A stretch of DNA of 64,000 nucleotides from Promethearchaeia archaeon. Lineage in GTDB: Archaea; Asgardarchaeota; Lokiarchaeia; Sigyniarchaeales; SOKP01. The position numbers and the translations under genes were made by a program. Below the pieces are notes generated by a model. The model worked only from the letters and a program-made list of their open reading frames with translations, was not told the origin of the DNA and did no database searches. The DNA is taken from NCBI GenBank assembly GCA_029856145.1, contig JAHQWK010000012.1, forward strand, positions 1 through 64,000. Direction: 5' to 3'. This document shows, piece by piece, positions 40,062-60,801 of the stretch; the stretch's first letter is position 1, and each line of letters begins with the position of its first letter.

Positions 40062-40616
40062 ATGGAGAATCAAGACTCTAAAAGTAAGATTGTTAAAGAA
40101 ACATTCCCATCAGAACTTATATCTATTATTGGAGATATCCTAGCAGGTATATTACTCTCACTTTTAATTTTGCCATTTAATAGTTTTCCGGTTTTAATTT
40201 TAATGGTTCCAGCACTTCTCTCTCTTAGAGGTAATTTGAGTGGGCCATTCATAGCCAGAACATCTCGGGATTTGATTATAGGAGATTTTTCTAAGAGAAC
40301 TTGGATTGAAAATGTACTAGCAACTTATACTCTATCAATATTTACAGCGATTTTCATAGGGATATTTTCCATAATTCTAAATTTTGCGTTTTTCAAATTA
40401 TTTATACTCCCCACTGTGCATTTTATTCTAATTCCAATCATTTCAATTGTTTTAACTTTATTAATTTCAATTCCTTGCTCAACTGGATTGAACTATTTAG
40501 CTTTCAAAAAAGGTTTAAACCCAAATAACATAGTAAATCCTGTTATGACCGCGATTGATGATTTTTCTACTGTATTTTTTTTTCTTTTAACAATAATAAT
40601 GCTGGGGGTGCCTTAA
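40062..40616 (+). CDS. MgtE-type integral membrane domain, half 1
   Basis: VPALLSLRGN..G, GLNPNNIVNP.MTAIDD. Confidence 0.85.
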   Translation: MENQDSKSKIVKETFPSELISIIGDILAGILLSLLILPFNSFPVLILMVPALLSLRGNLSGPFIARTSRDLIIGDFSKRTWIENVLATYTLSIFTAIFIGIFSIILNFAFFKLFILPTVHFILIPIISIVLTLLISIPCSTGLNYLAFKKGLNPNNIVNPVMTAIDDFSTVFFFLLTIIMLGVP

Positions 40617-40628
40617 ATTAAATATTAT

Positions 40629-41168
40629 ATGAAAATTTTCAAAGAATCAATAATTATCGTGATTATCTCTTCCTTAATGGGTTTAATTTCCGGCACACTT
40701 TTATCATTTAATGAAGATCTATTATATACAATTCCTATAATGCTCTTAATAATTCCCGCATTGAACTCTTTGATAGGGGATTTATCAACTGTTTTAGTCT
40801 CTAGATTAACTACACATCTTTATATTGGAACAATACCTCCAAAAATTCAAAAATCAGAAAGATTAATAGAAGATTTTTATGGATTAATCATAACCCTTTT
40901 ATTAAGCTTAGCATCTCTGTTATTTCTAGGATATTTAATTGGAATAATATCAGGTATCAGAATTGTAAATCCATTATTAATGATTTTAATTATTGTTGCT
41001 ACAATTTTATTAATTTTTTTCATAATGTTCTTAACATTGTTTATAGGCGCCATATTCTTATTTAAGCGAGGTAAAGATCCAAATAATTTTTTAATTCCAT
41101 TTGTTACCTCTTTAGCGGATTTTCTAACGCCTTTTTTCTTAATACTATTTATAATAATATTTATATAA
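40629..41168 (+). CDS. MgtE-type integral membrane domain, half 2
   Basis: IPALNSLIGD..SRLTT.LYIG, GKDPNNFLIPFVTSLAD. Confidence 0.85.
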   Translation: MKIFKESIIIVIISSLMGLISGTLLSFNEDLLYTIPIMLLIIPALNSLIGDLSTVLVSRLTTHLYIGTIPPKIQKSERLIEDFYGLIITLLLSLASLLFLGYLIGIISGIRIVNPLLMILIIVATILLIFFIMFLTLFIGAIFLFKRGKDPNNFLIPFVTSLADFLTPFFLILFIIIFI

Positions 41169-48388: not shown

Positions 48389-49315
48389 ATGAATGAACAG
48401 TATCGTACTTTTTTGAAAAATAACAAAATCGATGAAAATTCAATCCCTCAAACTAAATGTTGTAAAAATCCATTTATCGAATCTAGGGATGGCAATAAAG
48501 TTTGTTTAAATTGTGGGGTAATCTTTGAGAGAACCTACGTTGGAAATGAACGAAGAGCCTACACAATTGAAGAAATACAGAGCCGTCGCAGAACAGAACC
48601 GCGCTGGAGGGATTTTGGACCCAGAACTATGCTCCCGACGACTAAAACAGATAGTAAAGGCAAAAGTATTGGCGCTAAGGAGCAAGCTCTTTTCTCTCGT
48701 CTCTCGAAAATTCAGAATTCGCTAATTTCAAGTATTGAAAGAAACTTTTGGGAAGCAAAGCCAAAATTAAAAATGTTAACATCGAAACTCAATGTACCCG
48801 AATATATAGCAGAAACAGCTTGGAAGATATATAGCTTGGTTGCAAAAAAGAAATTAACAATGGGGAGATCAATAAATGGATTTATTTCAGGATCGCTATA
48901 TGCTGCTATTCGCGTTCATGACTTTCCACGGCTTTTAGATGAAATATGTGAAGCATCATTAACTCCAAGGAGGACAGTTCATAGAAGTCTAGCGATGATT
49001 ATTCGTGAGGTATTACCTGAGCTTAAATTAAGATATCAACCAATTACTGCTGAATGTTTAGTATTCCGTTTTGGTAATGAATTAGATTTACCGATATCAA
49101 TACAAAAAAACGCAATAAATATGTTAAAAGATGCATCAAGAAATGGTTTAAAACGAACTGGGAAAGATCCAAAGGGTTTAGCTGCTGCTTGCATATATAT
49201 CGCAGCTAAGAATGGTTTAATCCGTAAAACACAATCACTCGTAGCTAACGTAGCAAAGATCACAGAGGTTACATTGCGATCTCGTGCTAAACAAATAAAG
49301 AGTAAATTATCTTAA
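48389..49315 (+). CDS. tfb: Transcription initiation factor IIB
   Basis: Zn ribbon CC..CLNCG, E.RAY B-reader, ERN, GRS, GKDPKGLAAACIY, TQ..VA..A..TEVTLR. Confidence 0.95.
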   Translation: MNEQYRTFLKNNKIDENSIPQTKCCKNPFIESRDGNKVCLNCGVIFERTYVGNERRAYTIEEIQSRRRTEPRWRDFGPRTMLPTTKTDSKGKSIGAKEQALFSRLSKIQNSLISSIERNFWEAKPKLKMLTSKLNVPEYIAETAWKIYSLVAKKKLTMGRSINGFISGSLYAAIRVHDFPRLLDEICEASLTPRRTVHRSLAMIIREVLPELKLRYQPITAECLVFRFGNELDLPISIQKNAINMLKDASRNGLKRTGKDPKGLAAACIYIAAKNGLIRKTQSLVANVAKITEVTLRSRAKQIKSKLS

Positions 49316-49338: not shown

Positions 49339-49908
49339 TTAATCATGTTTTTCAGCTTCTTCTTGTAAGAGAGACCATTTTATACCAACTGCAGTTATGC
49401 ATAATCCAAGAAGTAACAAAAAGCAATTCACTGAAATAAAGAAAACCCAAAATATCGCGGGCATAATTGAGGTGATAGAAATACTAAAAAGAGCATTTTG
49501 AAACGAAATAGTCGTAAACGTTGTGCTGATATTAGTTTTCCCTAATAACACTAAGAAGTCCATTTTAACAAAAGCTCCTAATAAACCTACCATCCCGATG
49601 ATAATAATAAGCTTTGTTAATGGCTTGCTTTCAATATTTTTTTTTGAAGAGACTTTAAATATGAAAATCCCCAGAATTAAAAAACAAAACATTGAGATAA
49701 TTACAAATAACCATAATAATGTCCCTGAAAATGGAAAGATCGTGGAAGAGTAAACAAATTCCGATAATAAGATGGTATTTCCATCCAGAATAAAGGGCGT
49801 AAAATTTAATAATACTATATAAGCTACCTCGATTAAAGAAATTATTATTAATATTGAACCAACGATTTCAAGAAATTTAAGAACTTTTTCATATTTCATA
49901 TTTAACAC
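49339..49908 (-). CDS. Four-TM membrane protein
   Basis: Four long hydrophobic segments. Confidence 0.65.
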   Translation of the reverse strand: MLNMKYEKVLKFLEIVGSILIIISLIEVAYIVLLNFTPFILDGNTILLSEFVYSSTIFPFSGTLLWLFVIISMFCFLILGIFIFKVSSKKNIESKPLTKLIIIIGMVGLLGAFVKMDFLVLLGKTNISTTFTTISFQNALFSISITSIMPAIFWVFFISVNCFLLLLGLCITAVGIKWSLLQEEAEKHD

Positions 49909-50049: not shown

Positions 50050-51015
50050 TTGAAAAAGAAAAAAAAATCTGATTCGGAAATCTCAAATTGTTCTCATAAA
50101 AATATGAAACAAGACAGTGGATTTATTGTTTGCCAAGATTGTGGACTGATTATGGAAGATAATGTAGCTTTTGAAGATACCGTATCAACCAGTGATTTTT
50201 TTACAGATTCCCAGAGAGATTACGAAAGAAGAATCAGAGTAAGTGATTCAAAAGCACTCCAAGATCCTGTCATTAAAGAGAAATATGACCGAATTAAAAC
50301 TCTTGAAAAATGGTTCAGAGACTATGAATCTGATTTTACTGAACAAAAAAAAACAATTGAATTACTAAAAAGCCATGGAATTGGATTAAACATTGATAAC
50401 GTTAAAAATAAGGAAATTAAGGATCGATATTTGAAGTATAATAAATATCACCGCCATAATTATCAAAATATGGTGATAATTTTTCTAGCAATTGTATGGA
50501 TGCAAATAAAGGACACTACAAATATTAGGATTGAGCAATTCATTAATGTTTCTAGGGAATTAGGTCATAAAATAAATAAAAAGATGTTAAATAATGCTAT
50601 GTTAAAAATCAAACGAACTGAAAAGATATTTAAAGAGAAGAAGAGTACTAAAGAACTAGAGAATGAGATTAAAAATAAAATCAAAATTGTCTTTCAGAAA
50701 GACTTAAATCATATTCCGTACGAGAAAGTCCAAGAGTTTTTTTTCAATAAAGGTGAATATGAAAAAACTAAAATCGATATGCAGTTATTAGCTGACAAAA
50801 TATTGAATAAAATCTCTTATCGCCAGATTCAGAGTCTTAATTACAAAGCTTTTACTGCTGGATTAATTTATTATATAGGGCAAACTCTTGAAAACAGAAA
50901 AATTTTCACTCAAAGTCTAGTAGAAAGTACTAGTAAATTTTCAAGTACGACAATTCGGAAAAGATATCACGTTCTAAAAGATCTCTTAGGAGATCCTCAA
51001 GCACTTAACATCTGA
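50050..51015 (+). CDS. Divergent TFB-like protein
   Basis: CSH..VCQDCGL Zn ribbon; C-terminal AFTAGLIYY...FTQS.V....S.TTIRKRY cyclin/HTH motif. Confidence 0.75.
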   Translation: MKKKKKSDSEISNCSHKNMKQDSGFIVCQDCGLIMEDNVAFEDTVSTSDFFTDSQRDYERRIRVSDSKALQDPVIKEKYDRIKTLEKWFRDYESDFTEQKKTIELLKSHGIGLNIDNVKNKEIKDRYLKYNKYHRHNYQNMVIIFLAIVWMQIKDTTNIRIEQFINVSRELGHKINKKMLNNAMLKIKRTEKIFKEKKSTKELENEIKNKIKIVFQKDLNHIPYEKVQEFFFNKGEYEKTKIDMQLLADKILNKISYRQIQSLNYKAFTAGLIYYIGQTLENRKIFTQSLVESTSKFSSTTIRKRYHVLKDLLGDPQALNI

Positions 51016-51099: not shown

Positions 51100-53979
51100 A
51101 TGATTAAGATGTCATTATCTGAGAAACAAAATGAAGTCTATTATTATAATCAACCAATTGAGGATTTAGTAAAAAATTTTAATACTAATATTGAGAAAGG
51201 ATTAAATTCCTCCGAATTACATGAAAGATATCAAAAATCAGGGTATAACGAATTACCAAAAATTAAAAAATCTATTTGGAAAATTTATCTTGCTCCAATC
51301 TTCAATTTTTTAATTGTTATTCTCATTATTGCTGGGATTATAATTGTAATATTAGGGTCTCCAAGTGAAACAATAATAACTTTCACAGTAGTGATAATTA
51401 ACTCAATTACAGCTATAGTTCAACAATTTCGTGCACAAAAAGCTCTAGAATCCTTAAGAGAAATCTCTGCCTTAAAAGCAACCGTTTTAAGAGACGGAAA
51501 GCAGATCGAAATTAGAACAAAAGAATTGGTTCCAGGAGATATCGTAATGTTAAGCCAAGGAGATAAAATACCAGCAGATAGTAGAATAATTGAATTTATG
51601 GATTTTAGTGTTGATGAAGCTCCTCTCACAGGAGAGAGCGAACCTGTAGAGAAAAATAGTTATATTATAGAGAAAAAAGATATACACCTCCAAAATCAAT
51701 CAAATATGATATTTATGGGAACATATGTACGAACAGGAAGGGCTAAAGGATTAATTACAGGAACAGGCGTAAAAACGGAAATTGGAAAAATTTCGCAGAC
51801 ATTAAATGAAATGGGAAGTATTGAAGATATTCCATTAACCAGAAAGTTAAATCGTTTAGGGTATATTCTCGGAACGATTGTGATAATAAATCTTATTATA
51901 TTATTAACTTCTAAACTAATGATTCTAGGTATTGAAGGGAATTTGATCCAAAATGAAATAATTGAAGCAATTACAGATTCAATAATTAGGTCAATGAATA
52001 TAGTACCCATAAATTTACCTTTACTTTCAACTCTAGTTCTTATTACAGGCGTTTTAATCATGGCTCAAAGTGGAGTAATTATTAAAAATTTGTCCGCTAT
52101 CGAATCTCTTGGACGAGTATCGGTTATTTGTTCTGATAAAACAGGAACTATCACCAAAAATGAAATGACAGTGGAAAAGTTCTGGATAAATGATCAAGAA
52201 TATGAAGTTTCAGGATCTGGATATGATGCTACTGATGGTTTAATCTTTCAGAACCACAAACCAATTAATTTAACTGAAAACGAGACATTCATGAAGTTTC
52301 TTAACTCTATAGTAATAAATAATAATGCTCGTTTAGAATTTGAAGATATTAAAGTTAGATTAAAGAATATTAAAGAAAAGGCGGTAAGAAGGGCGCTAGG
52401 GTCCCCCACAGAAGCGGCATTATTAGTATTAACTGAGAAAGCTGGTTTACATCCTTATGATATTAAAAATAATTATATAATTACTAAAGAATTTTCATTT
52501 AGTTCTGAAGATAAAAGAATGACAACTATATGTAAGCCTTTGGGAGATAAGGATGAAATTTTTGCCTTTTCAAAAGGCGCACCTGAAAGAGTGTTAGAAG
52601 TATCTTCACAAATTGAAATTAACGGAATTTTGAAGGATCTTAACCAGATATATAAAGACTCAATTCTAGATAAAATCGATGAGCGAGCAAATCAAGGCTT
52701 TAGAACTTTAGCAATTGCATATAAAAAATTAAATAAGATTGATGATCTAAAAAGAGAAGAAGTTGAAAATAATTTAGTTTTCTTAGGTTTTGTTTCTATT
52801 ATGGATCCTCCACGACCAGGAGTTAAAAAATCTGTTGAAGAGTGCCAAAATGGAGGTGTAAAAGTAATAATGGTCACAGGAGACCATCCAGCAACAGCAA
52901 AAACTATTGCATCACAGATGGGGATTTTTAGAGAAGGAGATTTGGTCGCAACAGGCAATCAAATAGAAAATATTCCTCTCTCAGAATTCAATAAAACATC
53001 AGTATTTGCTCGAGTTGAACCTAATGATAAACAAGTAATAGTAGAGACTTATCAAAAACAAAAATTAATATGTGCTATGACAGGGGATGGCATCAATGAT
53101 GCTCCTGCTTTAAAACTAGCAAATGCAGGAGTTGCGATGGGGATTACTGGTACCGATCTTGCTAAAGAAGCCTCTGATATGGTAATTACAGATGATAATT
53201 TTTCTTCAATCAAACAAGGTGTTAAAACAGGAAGAGGAATCTTTGCTAAAATCAGGACAATTATTTTTTTCTTTATTTGCACTAATATTGTAGAAGGGAT
53301 AATATTTTTTACTTTCGAGCTTATAGCACCTTTCATAGGATTCGAACTTTTTGCATCAAACTGGCAACATATTTATATCTTTGGTATAGTCCATTCTCTT
53401 CCAGCTTTAGCTTTAGTAATTGATACACGTCCGAAGGATATAATGATTGAACCACCTAGAGACGAAGAAGAATTATTAAATAAGAATATGTGGATTATGC
53501 TATTAATTCAAGCTTTTCTAATTGGTTTAGGATTAATTCTTTCTTTGCAACTGACTTTAAATGGATTTATTCCATTAAATGAATGGAATTTAAACCCAAA
53601 TATTAGTTATATCGTCTCAGGACAAGAATTGGCTCAAAAAGCAAGAACAATGTTTATTACTACAATATTCATTGTTGAAACCAATTTCATATGGACCTTT
53701 AGAAGACCAAATAAATCTCTTTATAGAAGTATCAAAGAAGAATTAAGCCTTTCTTTATTGGTTATATGTTTATTTACGTTAGCCATACATATATTGTACA
53801 TTTGTTTTTCCCATATCGTTAATTTTTATGTGAATGATGTATTTGGGTTGAATCTACAGATAAATTTCATGTTTCTTAGTGGTACAGATTGGTTATTTTG
53901 TATTTTGCTAGCATTACCAGGAATAGTTGGTATTGAAATTTTTAAATACTTTGCTCGAGGTAGAAATATTCATTTTTAA
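51100..53979 (+). CDS. P-type ATPase (P2A-like scaffold, atypical TM4), copy 1
   Basis: LTGES, CSDKTGT, KGAPE, DPPR, TGD, GDGINDAPAL; TM4 VPINLP. Confidence 0.95.
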   Translation: MIKMSLSEKQNEVYYYNQPIEDLVKNFNTNIEKGLNSSELHERYQKSGYNELPKIKKSIWKIYLAPIFNFLIVILIIAGIIIVILGSPSETIITFTVVIINSITAIVQQFRAQKALESLREISALKATVLRDGKQIEIRTKELVPGDIVMLSQGDKIPADSRIIEFMDFSVDEAPLTGESEPVEKNSYIIEKKDIHLQNQSNMIFMGTYVRTGRAKGLITGTGVKTEIGKISQTLNEMGSIEDIPLTRKLNRLGYILGTIVIINLIILLTSKLMILGIEGNLIQNEIIEAITDSIIRSMNIVPINLPLLSTLVLITGVLIMAQSGVIIKNLSAIESLGRVSVICSDKTGTITKNEMTVEKFWINDQEYEVSGSGYDATDGLIFQNHKPINLTENETFMKFLNSIVINNNARLEFEDIKVRLKNIKEKAVRRALGSPTEAALLVLTEKAGLHPYDIKNNYIITKEFSFSSEDKRMTTICKPLGDKDEIFAFSKGAPERVLEVSSQIEINGILKDLNQIYKDSILDKIDERANQGFRTLAIAYKKLNKIDDLKREEVENNLVFLGFVSIMDPPRPGVKKSVEECQNGGVKVIMVTGDHPATAKTIASQMGIFREGDLVATGNQIENIPLSEFNKTSVFARVEPNDKQVIVETYQKQKLICAMTGDGINDAPALKLANAGVAMGITGTDLAKEASDMVITDDNFSSIKQGVKTGRGIFAKIRTIIFFFICTNIVEGIIFFTFELIAPFIGFELFASNWQHIYIFGIVHSLPALALVIDTRPKDIMIEPPRDEEELLNKNMWIMLLIQAFLIGLGLILSLQLTLNGFIPLNEWNLNPNISYIVSGQELAQKARTMFITTIFIVETNFIWTFRRPNKSLYRSIKEELSLSLLVICLFTLAIHILYICFSHIVNFYVNDVFGLNLQINFMFLSGTDWLFCILLALPGIVGIEIFKYFARGRNIHF

Positions 53980-54102
53980 ATTTCTCTTAGATAGAAATAT
54001 TTAATTTTTTAAATCATGATTATTATAGGTTATTTATTATATTGATAAGAATTTTGAATTCACTTATCATTAATTATTCTTAAAAATTGTGGAAGAACCA
54101 CT

Positions 54103-56991
54103 ATGGAATCTACAGAAAAGAATTACTATAATCTTCAATTAGAGCAAATTTATGAAAAATTTCAAGCTAACCCTGATAAAGGTTTAACTGAAAAAGAAGC
54201 TAATAAGAGATTAGAAAAATATGGTTTTAATGAAATCCCCAAAGTATCAAAAGGTTTTATTAAAATCTATTTAGCGCCACTGTTCAACTGGTTAATAGTT
54301 ATTTATCTAATTGGATCTTTGATTTTATTTTTAGCAGCGATCTTTGGAGGAGAAGGAAATCTATTCTTTGTTGGCTTAACTTTAGGAGTTGTATTACTGA
54401 ATTGTATAGTTGCAATTATTCAACAATATAGAGCAACAAAAAAGTTAAAGGCTTTACGTGAGTTAACTGCTCCTACTTCAACTATAATTAGAGATGACCA
54501 AAAGAAAGAAATTCCGACTAAAGAAATAGTTGTAGGAGATTTATTAGAACTAAATCAAGGTGATAAAATACCAGCAGATGCTAGAATTATTGAATCGTAT
54601 AACATGGTGGTAAATGAAGCCTCATTAACTGGAGAATCTGAGCCTGTAAGAAAATCAGAATCGGGAAAACCATTACATAAAAAAGAGATTTCAATAGGAG
54701 AACGCAGTAATATGGTATTTTATGGTACTTACATTAGTACAGGAAATGGTAAATCAATTGTTGTAAAAACTGGGGGAGATACTGAAATTGGTAAAATTTC
54801 TCATGGGTTAGAAGAAGCTGGTACAAGCGAGATTCCAATACGACAGAAAATGAACCATTTTGGAAAATGGCTGGGTTTAATAATTTTTATCTTTTGGTTT
54901 ATTACATTGATAATTCTTTGGGTAGCAAGAGGGTATGTTGATATAGTAGGAAGTATGAATTCTGCTCTCGATTTGATGCCCCTTAATATTCCGCTGCTTT
55001 CAACTATTGTTTTGATAACAGGAGTCTTAGCTATGGCACATCATGGTGTTATTATAAGAAACCTCGCTTCAGTTGATAGTTTAGGCCGTGTAAGTGTAGT
55101 TTGTTCGGATAAAACTGGCACTTTAACTAAAAACCAGATGTCTATACAGCATATTTGGACAAATGGGTCAATATTTAGAGCTACTGGTAGTGGGTATGCT
55201 CCAGATGGAGATATTATTTTAATGGATGATGTAAAAAATCCTCTTTATGTTAAACACATGGATGAATACCCTTATCTGAAATTATTGTTAACAGCAGGCT
55301 TTTTAAATAACAATTCAGCATTGATTAAAAATGAAATTGAAATTTCGGGTAGAATAATTCCCAAATGGGATGTCGTTGGTTCTCCTACAGAAGGAGCACT
55401 AATGGTTTTATTTCAGAAAGGTATGGGTGATTATCTTCTCGATGATTTTGAAGCGATTACTGAATATCCTTTCGATTCTTCAGTAAAGAGAATGACTAAA
55501 CTTTATAAACGAGAACAGTCATATTATTCATTTACAAAAGGAGCAAGTGAAGTTCTAATCCCACTTTGTACAAAGATCTTATATAATGATAGTGAGATCG
55601 AATTCAATGAACAAATTAAAAACAAAGTAATGGAAATTGTAAATCTTTATGCAAATCAAGGTTATAGAATATTAAGTCTGTGCTATAAAGTAATGGATAT
55701 AATTCCACCTGAAGGAGATGAAGGAAGAAAAGTAAGTGAATCAAATATGGTTTACATTGGTTTTGTAACAATTCTGGATCCTCCAAGAGAAGGAGTTAAA
55801 GAATCTGTAAATCAATGTCATGAAGCGGGTGTGGATGTTATAATGATCACAGGAGACTCTCCTGCTACTGCGCGCGCGATTGCTTCACAAATTGCTATTG
55901 CAACAGATGAGAATAAAACTGCTGTAGAAGGTAAAATGGTTAAGGATATTGAGTCATATGAAGAATTCAATCCAATTAGAGTATTTGCAAGAGTTTCTCC
56001 TGAACATAAAGAGGATATTGTTGAAAAATATCAAGAACAAAAAAAAGTAGTCGCGATGACTGGAGATGGTGTAAATGATGCTTTGGCACTAAATATGGCT
56101 GATGTAGGAATCGCAATGGGTATTACGGGAACGGATGTAGCTAAAGAAGCTTCCGATATGGTCATTTCAGATGATTCTTTTAATTCAATTGTTACAGGAA
56201 TCCATCAAGGAAGAGGAATATTCGCAAGAATTCGTGCTGTTGTCTTCTTTTATATTTGTATTAACATTTTTGAGGGAATAGTACAATTTATTTTATTTGT
56301 AATTTTGGAATTGCCATATTTCTTAAATGAAGCCTTTTATTTCCAATGGATATTTCTCACCATAACAGTTCATACATTTCCAGGATTAATCCTTACTTTT
56401 GATACTATTTCTAAAGATGTTATGAAAGAAAAACCACGGGATTCTGAAGAGATTCTTTCAAAAAATACATTTGGATTATTATTTATATTTGGTATTCTAC
56501 TTGCAATAAGTATGGTTATTGTTTATTCTATAACTATGAGCGGAATATATCCAGTTGTTCCTGGAAATTATCCCCAAGATTATCTTTATTTCATTAAAGA
56601 CCCTGAATTAATACCCCCCGATATTTTTGGGTTACCAATAGAAGAAATTAGAAAAATCGGAAAAACATTAACCATGCTGATGGTAACGTTATTTTTCTGT
56701 GAGACTTTTCTTGTAATTCAGATTAGACGGCCGAATAAATCCTTAATTAAGAGTCTAATTGAAGATCGAAATAAATTTATGTTTTTTCTAATTGGCTTTT
56801 TATTTTTTGTGTTGATCGCTTTAATATATATTCCCGGTGTTCAAGTTACATTAGCATCATGGGGTATTAATTTTATGTTCATGTTTTTGACAGGTTTAGA
56901 TTGGTTAGTGTGCTTCTCAATTTCATTAATCTGTATTGTTTCCTTTGAGATTGTCAAATTTGGCGCCCGTAAAATGGATATAAAGTTCTAA
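54103..56991 (+). CDS. P-type ATPase (P2A-like scaffold, atypical TM4), copy 2
   Basis: LTGES, CSDKTGT, KGASE, DPPR, TGD, GDGVNDA; TM4 MPLNIP. Confidence 0.95.
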   Translation: MESTEKNYYNLQLEQIYEKFQANPDKGLTEKEANKRLEKYGFNEIPKVSKGFIKIYLAPLFNWLIVIYLIGSLILFLAAIFGGEGNLFFVGLTLGVVLLNCIVAIIQQYRATKKLKALRELTAPTSTIIRDDQKKEIPTKEIVVGDLLELNQGDKIPADARIIESYNMVVNEASLTGESEPVRKSESGKPLHKKEISIGERSNMVFYGTYISTGNGKSIVVKTGGDTEIGKISHGLEEAGTSEIPIRQKMNHFGKWLGLIIFIFWFITLIILWVARGYVDIVGSMNSALDLMPLNIPLLSTIVLITGVLAMAHHGVIIRNLASVDSLGRVSVVCSDKTGTLTKNQMSIQHIWTNGSIFRATGSGYAPDGDIILMDDVKNPLYVKHMDEYPYLKLLLTAGFLNNNSALIKNEIEISGRIIPKWDVVGSPTEGALMVLFQKGMGDYLLDDFEAITEYPFDSSVKRMTKLYKREQSYYSFTKGASEVLIPLCTKILYNDSEIEFNEQIKNKVMEIVNLYANQGYRILSLCYKVMDIIPPEGDEGRKVSESNMVYIGFVTILDPPREGVKESVNQCHEAGVDVIMITGDSPATARAIASQIAIATDENKTAVEGKMVKDIESYEEFNPIRVFARVSPEHKEDIVEKYQEQKKVVAMTGDGVNDALALNMADVGIAMGITGTDVAKEASDMVISDDSFNSIVTGIHQGRGIFARIRAVVFFYICINIFEGIVQFILFVILELPYFLNEAFYFQWIFLTITVHTFPGLILTFDTISKDVMKEKPRDSEEILSKNTFGLLFIFGILLAISMVIVYSITMSGIYPVVPGNYPQDYLYFIKDPELIPPDIFGLPIEEIRKIGKTLTMLMVTLFFCETFLVIQIRRPNKSLIKSLIEDRNKFMFFLIGFLFFVLIALIYIPGVQVTLASWGINFMFMFLTGLDWLVCFSISLICIVSFEIVKFGARKMDIKF

Positions 56992-57080: not shown

Positions 57081-57626
57081 ATGTTAAGAGGAGAGAGAGT
57101 AAAATTATGTCCTATTAAAAGGGAATATATAGAATTCTTTCTTAAATGGTTTAACGATCCAGAAATTACTCAATATCTTGTACAATATCGTCCAATGACT
57201 CGAATGATGGAAGAAGAATGGATGGAGAATCTTAAAAACCGTAAGGATAATATTCATTTGTCTATTGTAATTCCTCATGATGATGGTTCAGAAAAGCTAA
57301 TTGGAAATTGCGGACTACATAATATTGACTGGAAAAATAGAGTGGCTGAAGCTGGAATAGTTATTGGAGAAAAAGAATATCAAAGTAAAGGATTTGGAAC
57401 TGAGGCGATGGAATTATTATTAGATTATGGTTTTAAAACTGTGAATTTAAACAGAATCGAATTATATACATATGCTTTTAATGTTCGAGCTTTAAAATCT
57501 TATAAAAAAGTTGGATTTATAGAAGAAGGAAGAAAAAGACAATTTATCTGGTCTAATGGAAGATATCATGATGCAATAATGATGGGGATTTTAGCAGAAG
57601 AATGGAGTGAGAGAAAAAAAAAATAG
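57081..57626 (+). CDS. RimJ/RimL/SpeG-type GNAT acetyltransferase
   Basis: L.GERV.L, IDWKNR.AE.GI.IG, KGFGTEA, N.RA..SYKKVGF..EG. Confidence 0.9.
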   Translation: MLRGERVKLCPIKREYIEFFLKWFNDPEITQYLVQYRPMTRMMEEEWMENLKNRKDNIHLSIVIPHDDGSEKLIGNCGLHNIDWKNRVAEAGIVIGEKEYQSKGFGTEAMELLLDYGFKTVNLNRIELYTYAFNVRALKSYKKVGFIEEGRKRQFIWSNGRYHDAIMMGILAEEWSERKKK

Positions 57627-57636
57627 GTAAAAATGG

Positions 57637-58719
57637 TTATCTTTCCAATTCTTTAAAGTAGGGGATAATTTCATCCCGAAAGATTTCATAAACCCGATTA
57701 ACGTCAGGACCTCGGTTCATAAGAATCATTGAAGTCGCGCCTGCTTCTTTAAATTTTTCTATACTTGAAATAACATCATCTGTAGAACCTAAACAGTTAG
57801 TATCTTGAAGGATTGTTTCAGGAAGGTTATCTACACATGATAATTGCTCATTAATATCCTTTACTTGCATGTCAAAATTATGAATTGTATAATCCGTTGG
57901 AAGACATAAATCGGGGTATATTTGATTAGTTTTTGTTGGATTCAGAACATATGAAACTCTAAAGAATTCACAGCGTTTAACAGCATTTTCCGGAGTTTTA
58001 TTATCTATAGCCACAAAGCAATTATAAGTATAATCAATTTCTTCTGGATTTCGACCTATTTTTTTAGCTGCATCAACAATTTCTTTTTTATTTTCTTTAA
58101 ATGTTTTAGGTGACTCTACAAAGGGATACCATCCATCTCCTAATTCACCAGTCATTTGACGAGTTTTAGGACCGTTTGCTGCAATATATATAGGAGGAGT
58201 ATTTTGAATAGGTTTAACTTGGATATAAGCGCGGCGTATATTACCCCAGAAATCACTTTTTCTACTTACTTTGCGTTTTGTCCAAAAATCTCTTAATAAC
58301 TCAATATATTCTCTTAATTTCGTTATAGATTTATCACGATTCAATCCATACATATCAACATTCATTTTTTCACCTGCACCGAGACCTATCATAGCTCTTC
58401 CATTTGAAATTTGGTCGAGAGTAGCAACTTTTTGAGCCATTAGTGCAGGATGAAACCGATGAGGATCAGAAACACCAGTACATAATTTAGCTTTAGTAGT
58501 GATCATTGCGATTGAGGTGAGAAACATAAAAGCATCAAAACAAGTACCTGGTCCTGGAGGTAGCATTACTGTATGATCTGCATAAAATACATATTCAAAA
58601 CCGCATTGCTCGGCTTTTTTAGCTCCTTCATACATATAATCAAGCCGAGGGGTGGGAACTGGGATTGAAAATCCAAACTTCATAATAATTAAAATTGTTT
58701 GAATCTTAAAAACTTCCAT
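57637..58719 (-). CDS. LLM-class flavin (probably F420)-dependent oxidoreductase
   Basis: ADH, GV.DP.R.HPA..AQ..ATLD.IS.GR...GLGAG, PPIYIAA.GP, GELGDGW. Confidence 0.9.
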   Translation of the reverse strand: MEVFKIQTILIIMKFGFSIPVPTPRLDYMYEGAKKAEQCGFEYVFYADHTVMLPPGPGTCFDAFMFLTSIAMITTKAKLCTGVSDPHRFHPALMAQKVATLDQISNGRAMIGLGAGEKMNVDMYGLNRDKSITKLREYIELLRDFWTKRKVSRKSDFWGNIRRAYIQVKPIQNTPPIYIAANGPKTRQMTGELGDGWYPFVESPKTFKENKKEIVDAAKKIGRNPEEIDYTYNCFVAIDNKTPENAVKRCEFFRVSYVLNPTKTNQIYPDLCLPTDYTIHNFDMQVKDINEQLSCVDNLPETILQDTNCLGSTDDVISSIEKFKEAGATSMILMNRGPDVNRVYEIFRDEIIPYFKELER

Positions 58720-58803: not shown

Positions 58804-59949
58804 TTGGAAAGTGATATTATGGATATTAGTGATATAAAAATTGGTACTGAAGGAAGTTTCATTGGCCCTCTTGAAAAAGGAATTGCCCAAGTAAAAAGGA
58901 TAGAAGAGAACGGGTATGATTCGGTATGGTTTGCGGACCATTTGATGGGATGGACACCAGATAGTATATGGACACCTGATATTCTTAGAGCTGCTGAATT
59001 TGTAGATAGCCCACATATATTTCATGAAGTATATTCAGTCATGGCTGCTGCTGCTTGGAATACAAATAAAATTAAACTAGGTACAAGCGTGACTGAAACC
59101 TTTCGAAGACATCCTGCTGTTTTAGCTCAAACATTACTAACCCAAGATCACATCTCAAAGGGAAGAGTAATATTAGGTATCGGAGCTGGAGAAGGTGAAA
59201 ATGTAGTACCTTATGGTATTAAATGGGAGAATCCTGTAGGTAGATTAGACGAATCTATTCAAATAATTAAGTTATTGTGGAAGAGCGATAAGAAAGTAAA
59301 CTTTGATGGAAAATTTTGGAAATTGAAAAATGCTGTTCTTAACCTGAAACCATTCGAAAAAGGTAAATATCCTCCTATTTGGATAGCTGCACATGGACCC
59401 AAAATGCTTGATTTAACCGGAAGATTAGGGGATGGTTGGTTACCTGCATATTCTGATCCAGAATCATATAAATTTAGACTAAATCATATCAAAAATTCAG
59501 CAAAAAAAGCAAACAGAGATCCAAATGAAATTGTCCCAGCACTATTTAGTTTCCTACTAATCGATGAAGAACATAATGTCTGTGATGATATGCTTGAAAA
59601 CCCCGTAATTAAAAATCAACTATTAACTATGCCTCCTTCAATGTATAAAAAGTATGGAGCAATTCATCCTTTTGGAGAAGATTTTTATGGACTACTTGAA
59701 TATATCCCGACAGAATATGATAGAAAAACAGTATTAGAAGCAATAGATAAAATCCCCGCAAAAATGTGTGATGATAATACTTTACATGGGACACCTGATG
59801 AAGTTATCAGTAAAATTGAAGAATATGCTAAAGTGGGTCTAAAACATATTGTTTTTTATAATACAACTTATTTAGCGGATATTACTAAAATTAAAAGTTC
59901 ATTTGGCTTATTGAAAAAAGTCCTGCAATATTTTCACGATGAGAAGTAG
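58804..59949 (+). CDS. LLM-class flavin (probably F420)-dependent oxidoreductase
   Basis: VWFADH, RRHPA..AQ..LT.DH.SKGR.ILGIGAGE, PPIWIAAHGP, GDGW. Confidence 0.9.
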   Translation: MESDIMDISDIKIGTEGSFIGPLEKGIAQVKRIEENGYDSVWFADHLMGWTPDSIWTPDILRAAEFVDSPHIFHEVYSVMAAAAWNTNKIKLGTSVTETFRRHPAVLAQTLLTQDHISKGRVILGIGAGEGENVVPYGIKWENPVGRLDESIQIIKLLWKSDKKVNFDGKFWKLKNAVLNLKPFEKGKYPPIWIAAHGPKMLDLTGRLGDGWLPAYSDPESYKFRLNHIKNSAKKANRDPNEIVPALFSFLLIDEEHNVCDDMLENPVIKNQLLTMPPSMYKKYGAIHPFGEDFYGLLEYIPTEYDRKTVLEAIDKIPAKMCDDNTLHGTPDEVISKIEEYAKVGLKHIVFYNTTYLADITKIKSSFGLLKKVLQYFHDEK

Positions 59950-59955
59950 AAGAGG

Positions 59956-60801
59956 TTGATAGACTTGTATATTGATTGTCATGCTCACATATTTTTTAGC
60001 CCGATCCCTAAAGAAGCTATTGATAAAGATATCAAGGGTGAAATACCGACACCTACCATAGACTTTATAAATAGAATGATATCTAATGCAAAAAAAAAAG
60101 GAGTAAGCCATATTGTTGGAGTTATTAGTAATCCAGACGAGTTCCCAAGATATAAAGAACAATTGAAGCTTGAAAATATTATAAATATTATTGGTATCTC
60201 AAGAAATAAATCGCTAGAAGACCAAGCATATATGATTTCGTTATTAAGAAAGGAAATTGAGAGAAAAATACCTCATGGGATCGGAGAGATTGGATTGGAA
60301 TATCCCTATGATTTTGATAAGTTAAAGGAACATGAAGAAAAAGAAATTAAGAAAAGACAGCAGGAATTATTTAGAAAACAAATTCAAATTGCTAAAGAAA
60401 TTGCGATTCCTATTGTCGTTCATGCTGGATATGGTACAGATAAAGATATTGTGAAAATGTTAAAACAAGAAAAAGCAGATGATGTAGGGGGCCAAATTCA
60501 TGGCTATATGTCTAATAAAGAGTTAGTTAGTGAATTACTTGATCTAGGCTTTTACTTTTCGTTTGGATATTTCCATCCGAGAGAAGAGGAATTACGAACG
60601 ATTATTGAGATAACTCCAATAGAAAAGATCCTTATTGAAACAGATTCTCCATATCATCTAATAGAATCTCCTAAAAGATTTATTCTTCCAGAGGATGTGG
60701 TGCCAATTACAAAGGAAATTGCTAAATTAAAAGAAGTTAATCCTAAAACTTTTGCTAACCAGGTAATGAAGAATAGTAAGGAACTTTTTAATTTCAATTA
60801 A
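59956..60801 (+). CDS. tatD: TatD family hydrolase
   Basis: IDCHAH, GIGEIGL, F..QI..A, VVH, IH and ETDSPY motifs. Confidence 0.85.
   Translation: MIDLYIDCHAHIFFSPIPKEAIDKDIKGEIPTPTIDFINRMISNAKKKGVSHIVGVISNPDEFPRYKEQLKLENIINIIGISRNKSLEDQAYMISLLRKEIERKIPHGIGEIGLEYPYDFDKLKEHEEKEIKKRQQELFRKQIQIAKEIAIPIVVHAGYGTDKDIVKMLKQEKADDVGGQIHGYMSNKELVSELLDLGFYFSFGYFHPREEELRTIIEITPIEKILIETDSPYHLIESPKRFILPEDVVPITKEIAKLKEVNPKTFANQVMKNSKELFNFN

Follow-up and report, generated by a model that had tools for sequence, protein, structure and literature searches.

The window analysed here comprises the first 64,000 nucleotides (positions 1 to 64,000, forward strand) of contig JAHQWK010000012.1 from a Promethearchaeia archaeon (assembly GCA_029856145.1). 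It is AT-rich (about 29% G+C) and carries two adjacent genes for P-type ATPases, named gene A and gene B, with a fourth transmembrane helix (TM4 or M4) that recalls lipid flippases on a scaffold that recalls Ca2+ pumps. The question raised by this locus is what the two pumps transport. The initial annotation had suggested a possible lipid or organic cargo and perhaps a transition from P2 to P4 ATPases. By our analysis, both genes probably code for functional P-type (Post-Albers) ATPases from a so far undescribed offshoot of class P2A, termed the His-type family, and these would pump inorganic cations other than Ca2+. Our confidence in this is shared about evenly between a transition metal and Na+, K+ or H+ as the ion.

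Gene pair and catalytic motifs

Both genes were complete and lay on the same strand:

51100-53979, + strand: gene A (P0001), complete P2A-like P-type ATPase of the His-type family, 959 amino acids (aa), from its open reading frame (ORF), Pfam and trees
53980-54102, + strand: AT-rich intergenic spacer of 123 bp between genes A and B, read from the sequence
54103-56991, + strand: gene B (P0002), complete P-type ATPase of the His-type family, 962 aa, from its ORF and trees
52135-52149, + strand: phosphorylation motif DKTGT (D346) of gene A, by motif reading
55108-55122, + strand: phosphorylation motif DKTGT (D336) of gene B, by motif reading

The two proteins shared 42% identity and each contained five Pfam domains of P-type ATPases (Cation_ATPase_N, E1-E2_ATPase, Cation_ATPase, Hydrolase and Cation_ATPase_C). 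In gene A the catalytic motifs were TGES (177-180), DKTGT (346-350), KGA (492), DPPR (569) and GDGIND (662), and in gene B they were TGES (176), DKTGT (336), KGA (479), DPPR (559) and GDGVND (654). All five motifs had been listed in the initial annotation and all were present in the register given there. Both genes belong to the P-type ATPase superfamily by DKTGT, TGES, KGA/DPPR/GDGxND and the E1-E2 domain set, and the catalytic machinery of both pumps is intact. Close homologues were labelled Promethearchaeota, Lokiarchaeota or Hermodarchaeota. Orthologues of gene A were found in more than 100 Asgard-labelled clusters at 68-88% identity, a level which over many genomes indicates strong purifying selection.

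Rebuilt ion site

The residues that would line the transport site were located as follows:

52006-52020, + strand: gene A TM4 PINLP (P303-P307), with I304 at the position of SERCA E309 and N305 at that of G310
53284-53295, + strand: gene A TM5 N729-I-V-E732, the kept equivalents of SERCA N768 and E771
53392-53394, + strand: gene A TM6 His765 codon, at the position of SERCA D800, invariant in the family
53677-53679, + strand: gene A TM8 Glu860 codon, the equivalent of SERCA E908
54979-54993, + strand: gene B TM4 PLNIP (P293-P297), by motif reading
56263-56274, + strand: gene B TM5 N721-I-F-E724, by motif reading
56371-56373, + strand: gene B TM6 His757 codon, by motif reading and alignment
56701-56703, + strand: gene B TM8 Glu867 codon, by motif reading and alignment

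The TM4 motif occupied residues 303-307 in gene A and 293-297 in gene B, and in both genes its proline stood 43 residues ahead of the phosphorylated Asp. The surrounding motifs were NIVE (729-732), IVHSLP (763-768, with H765) and E860 in gene A and NIFE (721-724), TVHTFP (755-760, with H757) and E867 in gene B. Positional equivalence was taken from an alignment to P0273, the ordinary pump of the same genome with all Ca2+ ligands (PEGL, TNFDE, NIATD and E), and to 103 PEGLP representatives. The alignment showed that SERCA E309 is replaced by Ile or Leu, G310 by Asn, N796 by Phe or Thr, T799 by Val and D800 by His, while the equivalents of N768, E771 and E908 are kept in both pumps. The change of TM6 from NLVTD to FGIVH or TITVH, the retained N-x2-E of TM5, the retained TM8 Glu and the spacing of the TM4 proline, all described in the initial annotation, were thus confirmed.

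Of 120 close homologues, 118 had PINLP in TM4. When 29 diverged family members were aligned, P303, N305, E732 and H765 were invariant and E860 nearly so. On these two counts the motif pattern lies far beyond chance. In a contrast of 31 family members with 103 PEGLP representatives, the M6 His had a frequency of 1.00 in the family against 0.90 for Asp in the PEGLP pumps. Only hydrophobic residues (I, L, V, F or W) stood at the position of SERCA E309, and Glu was absent in 31/31 representatives of the family. Further positions that set the family apart were N305, which is Gly in 90% of the PEGLP pumps, L308/L309, P66 in M1 (Gln in 93%) and Q109 in M2 (Glu in 97%). Conservation in two anciently diverged paralogues and in hundreds of genomes agreed with the earlier proposal that the pattern is upheld by selection and does not reflect decay.

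Judged by alignment, the SERCA-type site II is dismantled, with E309 changed to I/L/V/F/W, N796 to a hydrophobic residue and D800 to His. The site-I ligands of M5 (Asn and Glu) and M8 (Glu) are kept and are joined by the new invariant M6 His and M4 Asn. The AlphaFold2 model of the pump (mean predicted local distance difference test score 82.5, predicted template modelling score 0.74) had the M4 helix broken at 300-305 and the M6 helix broken at 765. As modelled, these breaks correspond to the ion-site architecture of P2 pumps, in a 10-helix P2A fold with M4 unwound at P303-N305. The structure prediction that had been suggested as a check gave the architecture of a P2 ion site and no preference for a P4 fold.

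Comparison with known P-type classes

The two pumps showed the P2 architecture with Cation_ATPase_N and Cation_ATPase_C domains, 10 transmembrane helices and P2A pumps as nearest folds, while the gating Glu of PEGLP and the M6 N-x-x-T-D of P2A were both missing. No curated NCBIfam cut-off was reached by either pump. Scores for gene A and gene B were 483 and 476.5 bits with the PMR1-type model TIGR01522 (cut-off 798.3), 464 and 427.8 bits with the SERCA-type model TIGR01116 (cut-off 703.4), 352.5 and 351.9 bits with P3A TIGR01647 (cut-off 615.5), 253 and 228 bits with P5 TIGR01657 (cut-off 618) and 125.2 and 109.8 bits with P4 TIGR01652 (cut-off 431.25). Scores with the other class models were 419 (P2D), 414 (P2B), 370 (P2C) and 323 bits (P3B). 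The M4 motif PINLP also differed from the PP(E/A)LP of P5 pumps. A Foldseek search with the AlphaFold2 model placed SPCA1 in the E2P state (TM-scores 0.77/0.82), SERCA2b in E2-BeF3 and LMCA1 at the top of the solved structures, followed by P2C pumps, and the best 50 solved-structure matches were all P2A or P2C. By sequence, the best solved relatives were LMCA1, SPCA1 and SERCA.

The closest described systems are therefore the P2A Ca2+/Mn2+-ATPases (LMCA1, 6zhf/9euq; SPCA1/PMR1, 8iwt/7yam; SERCA1a/2b), which share with the His-type family the domain order, the 10-helix membrane domain, the catalytic motifs, the unwound M4 P-x-x-x-P, the M5 NxxE and the M8 Glu. The family differs from them in its M4, where Glu is replaced by I/L/V/F/W and the next Gly by Asn, in the loss of the M6 N-x-x-T-D with Asp changed to His, in Pro for the M1 Gln and Gln for the M2 Glu109, in scores below every equivalog cut-off and in forming a separate clade. 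P3A H+-ATPases (AHA2, Pma1 and archaeal relatives) share TGES and have PIAMP (P-I-x-x-P) in M4, with Ile at the same place and the logic of a single-site pump, but their M6 Asp acceptor is His here and their M5 Arg has no counterpart. In P1B-4 pumps for Co2+, Fe2+ or Zn2+ (SPC...HEGxT), the metal is coordinated by a His in the final core helix, which corresponds to M6. That class has 6-8 helices, an M4 Cys and no P2-type N- and C-terminal domains, and its site is not homologous, so the likeness is one of analogy only. The mycobacterial P6 ATPase CtpE is likewise prokaryotic and P2-like with the M6 Asp replaced, and a changed transport has been proposed for it; it keeps PEGL and has Ile in M6, whereas the His-type family has lost PEGL and has His in M6 (PMC10654040). 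CtpE-like representatives fell within the PEGLP group of our alignment.

A literature search covering Asgard P-type and P4 ATPases and the FUPA families found no paper describing the His-type family. In the Asgard transportome from the Saier laboratory, the Asgard orthologues were listed only as putative Ca2+-ATPases (PMC7997004). The Palmgren 2023 review of known P-type classes places the prokaryotic P2A pumps in a single family, adds P6 and anticipates further families among prokaryotes (PMC10654040). The possibility that the signature belongs to an already characterised subfamily, which would have undone the initial annotation, was addressed both by this search and by the scores with the curated hidden Markov models (HMMs), and no such subfamily emerged. 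The suggestion of an uncharacterised substrate class in the initial annotation was supported; the transport site matched no described class.

Phylogeny and distribution

A search of 1.84 billion cluster representatives produced about 32 full-length clusters (50% identity) whose TM4 fits P-[ILVFW]-N-[ILF]-[PV], and ordinary PEGLP pumps started below about 520 bits. Trees were made with FastTree from 135 representatives and with IQ-TREE (LG+G4, SH-aLRT support) from 63, and were unrooted with respect to P2B/C/D, P3, P4 and P5. A long branch split the family from 25-103 PEGLP representatives with a support of 100 in FastTree and an SH-aLRT of 100 in IQ-TREE. Phylogeny thus gave the family a clade of its own beside the PEGLP pumps, in trees that are unrooted and hold no references of other classes. 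Gene A fell in a subclade with P0123, P0124 and P0125 and gene B in another deep subclade with P0138, which means that the two tandem genes did not arise by recent duplication.

The Asgard clade had an SH-aLRT of 99 in IQ-TREE. A basal clade with PW[SN]FP in M4 (P0149 and P0223), which retains the M6 His, the M5 NxxE and the M8 Glu, was sister to it (supports of 97 and 99, with 100 for the joint branch in IQ-TREE). Eight NCBI names within the PW[SN]FP clade read Thermoplasmatota, and the His-type family is therefore not strictly confined to Asgard archaea, as far as the labels of metagenome-assembled genomes are trustworthy. The survey of the TM4 and TM6-His signature across archaea that had been proposed was informative, since it gave a family made up of Asgard archaea and this Thermoplasmatota-labelled sister clade. 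P0139 alone was labelled 'Korarchaeota'; it stood within a Thor/Promethearchaeota clade, and either a wrong label or a transfer is the probable cause.

Scores with a family model were calibrated on 45 representative Asgard genomes and were bimodal, with members at 1056 bits or more. All 18 inspected hits at 700-905 bits were ordinary pumps with PE[GAS]LP and NLVTDGLP, ordinary pumps of other archaeal phyla scored 650-855 bits, and a threshold of E ≤ 1e-100 does not separate the family from ordinary pumps. A family-level score was found in 283 of 400 Asgard genomes (about 71%, by a hand count of rows with E = 0), and the family was present in 17 of 33 Asgard families. It was missing from complete genomes of several Asgard families, e.g., G117 (100% complete, one contig) and G303 (98%). 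Tandem pairs occurred in the family of the window's organism (6/6 genera) and in one other family, neighbouring families had three to four dispersed copies and the remainder had one copy. In the order of the window's organism, the closed genomes G135:C1 and G143:C1 held 3-4 dispersed His-type pumps and 2-3 ordinary PEGLP pumps, the largest expansion seen, in lineages that likewise have no Na_H_Exchanger. Among the distant matches, P0153, P0164, P0183 and P0212 were 1550-1700 aa long and appeared to be fusions of two P-type ATPases, with two DKTGT motifs and PEGL in the second half.

Transported ion and alternative functions

In the mechanism that we propose, one small inorganic cation other than Ca2+ would bind from the cytoplasm in a pocket of Glu, His and Glu, together with Asn, where it would be held by Asn and Glu of M5, His of M6, Glu of M8, Asn of M4 and backbone groups. 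It would be occluded on phosphorylation of D346 and released outside in E2P, following the usual E1/E2 cycle. Protons taken up by the His/Glu set would probably return as counter-ions. Genes A and B diverged long ago as paralogues and share their pocket residues, so that a difference in regulation or kinetics is more likely between them than one in the class of cargo.

For the ion itself we lean slightly and tentatively towards a divalent transition metal of the Fe2+/Mn2+/Zn2+/Co2+ kind, since a set of one His, two carboxylates and amides would suit Fe2+, Mn2+, Zn2+ or Co2+. Several observations weigh against a metal pump or leave it without a functional hint. For transition metals, three CDF genes, VIT1 and a CPC-type P1B pump are already encoded in this genome. 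Acidic residues of the cytoplasmic entry region are neutralised (E109 to Gln, with Q56 in M1 to Pro), which suits a monovalent ion as well as or better than a divalent one. In addition, no conserved partner was found around the pumps, whose neighbours are TFIIB-like, GNAT and luciferase-like genes in the window and subtilase, PanB (ketopantoate hydroxymethyltransferase), MFS and PHP genes in Thor-type genomes.

It is nearly as likely that the two genes encode housekeeping monovalent pumps for Na+ export and/or K+ import, or for H+ export, in which a pocket with two negative charges would take one ion and the His, being titratable, would stand in as an internal counter-ion. In H,K-ATPase (Lys), P3A pumps (Arg) and LMCA1 (Arg), a positive residue of the protein itself takes the place of an ion. 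The pocket here has two acidic residues fewer than that of SERCA, and the entry path has Gln in place of E109. The genome of the window's organism (G000, 97% complete) had no recognisable TrkH/KtrB, Kup, KdpB, two-TM K+-channel pore, CPA Na+/H+ exchanger (NhaP), NhaC or NhaA in a search that did not take in Mrp-type and other Na+ systems, while it does have CorA, MgtE-like genes, CDFs, VIT1, a Ca2+ pump and a heavy-metal pump. The highest copy number of the family (2-4) was also found in an order without Na_H_Exchanger. However, no phyletic complementarity was seen: TrkH/KtrB (PF02386) was found in 0/45 representative Asgard genomes, whether or not they had the pump, and Na_H_Exchanger occurred in 12 of the 17 pump-bearing families and in 10 of the 16 that lack the pump. 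His would moreover be an unusual ligand for Na+ or K+. Apart from the question of these pumps, known families offer no evident route for K+ uptake and Na+ expulsion in these archaea.

An ordinary Ca2+ (or Ca2+/Mn2+) pump that uses the remaining site-I residues is unlikely, even if it is what the public annotation states ('Ca2+-transporting ATPase', similar to TC 3.A.3.2.21). In its favour, it can be said that the best-scoring named families and structures are Ca2+ pumps, that the equivalents of N768, E771 and E908 are kept and that relatives are named Ca2+-ATPases in the sources, the transportome study included. The scores, however, fall far under the equivalog cut-offs (483 bits for a cut-off of 798 and 464 for one of 703), and neither E309 nor D800 survives in any member. 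These two residues are known to be indispensable in SERCA, SPCA, PMCA and LMCA1, and pumps for a single Ca2+ keep site II and not site I, whereas the His-type family keeps the site-I residues instead. With the fully canonical P0273 in the same genome, there is also no need for a second and a third Ca2+ pump.

A transporter of lipids or bulky organic cargo, as a prokaryotic analogue or precursor of the P4 flippases, is very unlikely. It is suggested by M4, in which PINL resembles PISL and the flippases ATP8A1 and Drs2p share the Ile directly after the proline: three of four residues are common (Pro, a hydrophobic residue in place of Glu, and Leu/Ile), Ser is replaced by Asn and a second Pro follows. 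Asgard archaea are, in addition, the sister group of eukaryotes. The shared Ile is not diagnostic of lipid transport, because P3A H+ pumps with their PIAMP have it too. The P4 model scored far below its cut-off and below the PMR1-type model, the A-domain has TGES and not DGET, no P4 pump was among the best 50 fold matches, and the second Pro of P2 pumps (P+4) is kept. The pocket is invariant and polar (N305, N729, E732, H765 and E860), as an ion site would be. The flippase beta subunit CDC50/LEM3 (PF03381) was found in 0/11 genomes, including the window's own, in a search without a positive control, and the sister clade lies in Thermoplasmatota, not in eukaryotes. On the same evidence the lipid or organic cargo and the P2-to-P4 transition put forward in the initial annotation were not supported.

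Finally, a non-transporting derivative with a sensory or regulatory role, in which ATP would be turned over but no cargo moved, is suggested by the loss of the classical ion ligands and the missing substrate assignment. It is hardly credible: the catalytic and coupling motifs are all kept, one to four copies are widely conserved, and the kept motifs together with the new invariant polar residues in the membrane argue for a conserved binding site.

Gene neighbourhood

Just upstream of the pump genes lie two TFIIB-related genes at 48389-49315 (+ strand) and 50050-51015 (+ strand); one has the TFIIB cyclin repeats and the other, of 321 aa, has only a weak match to the TFIIB zinc ribbon. Between them an ORF of 189 aa without Pfam matches runs on the opposite strand (49339-49908). 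Downstream is a divergent pair of luciferase-like oxidoreductase genes, probably F420-dependent, at 57637-58719 (- strand) and 58804-59949 (+ strand), flanked by a GNAT acetyltransferase (57081-57626) and a TatD-type hydrolase (59956-60801). Elsewhere in the window, two small tandem ORFs at 40062-40616 and 40629-41168 (+ strand; 184 and 179 aa) match only the membrane domain of MgtE (PF01769, 55-57 bits). Both are without the usual cytoplasmic N and CBS domains, and the pair may represent an MgtE-like Mg2+ channel in split or minimal form.

Significance of the His-type family

The classes of P-type ATPases are defined by their transport site, and that of the His-type family matches none described. 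On balance we favour a new functional class of P-type pump on the P2 scaffold, which would be either the first P2-type transition-metal pump, with a Glu-His-Glu site, or the missing housekeeping Na+/K+/H+ pump of Loki-type Asgard archaea, whose genomes reveal neither a known Na+/H+ antiporter nor a known system for K+ uptake. The family is large and strongly conserved, with more than 30 clusters at 50% identity and one to four copies per genome, and with its ion identified it would offer a natural experiment in the conversion of a site for two Ca2+ into another site. The tempting but unsupported story of a lipid-flippase origin is removed. If the new class is real and shared with sediment Thermoplasmatota, it would be an ancient archaeal invention or a transfer between groups and not related to eukaryotes. 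As its members are annotated everywhere as 'Ca2+-transporting ATPase', the identity of the ion would correct hundreds of annotations and would supply a missing piece of ion handling in the archaea most closely related to eukaryotes.

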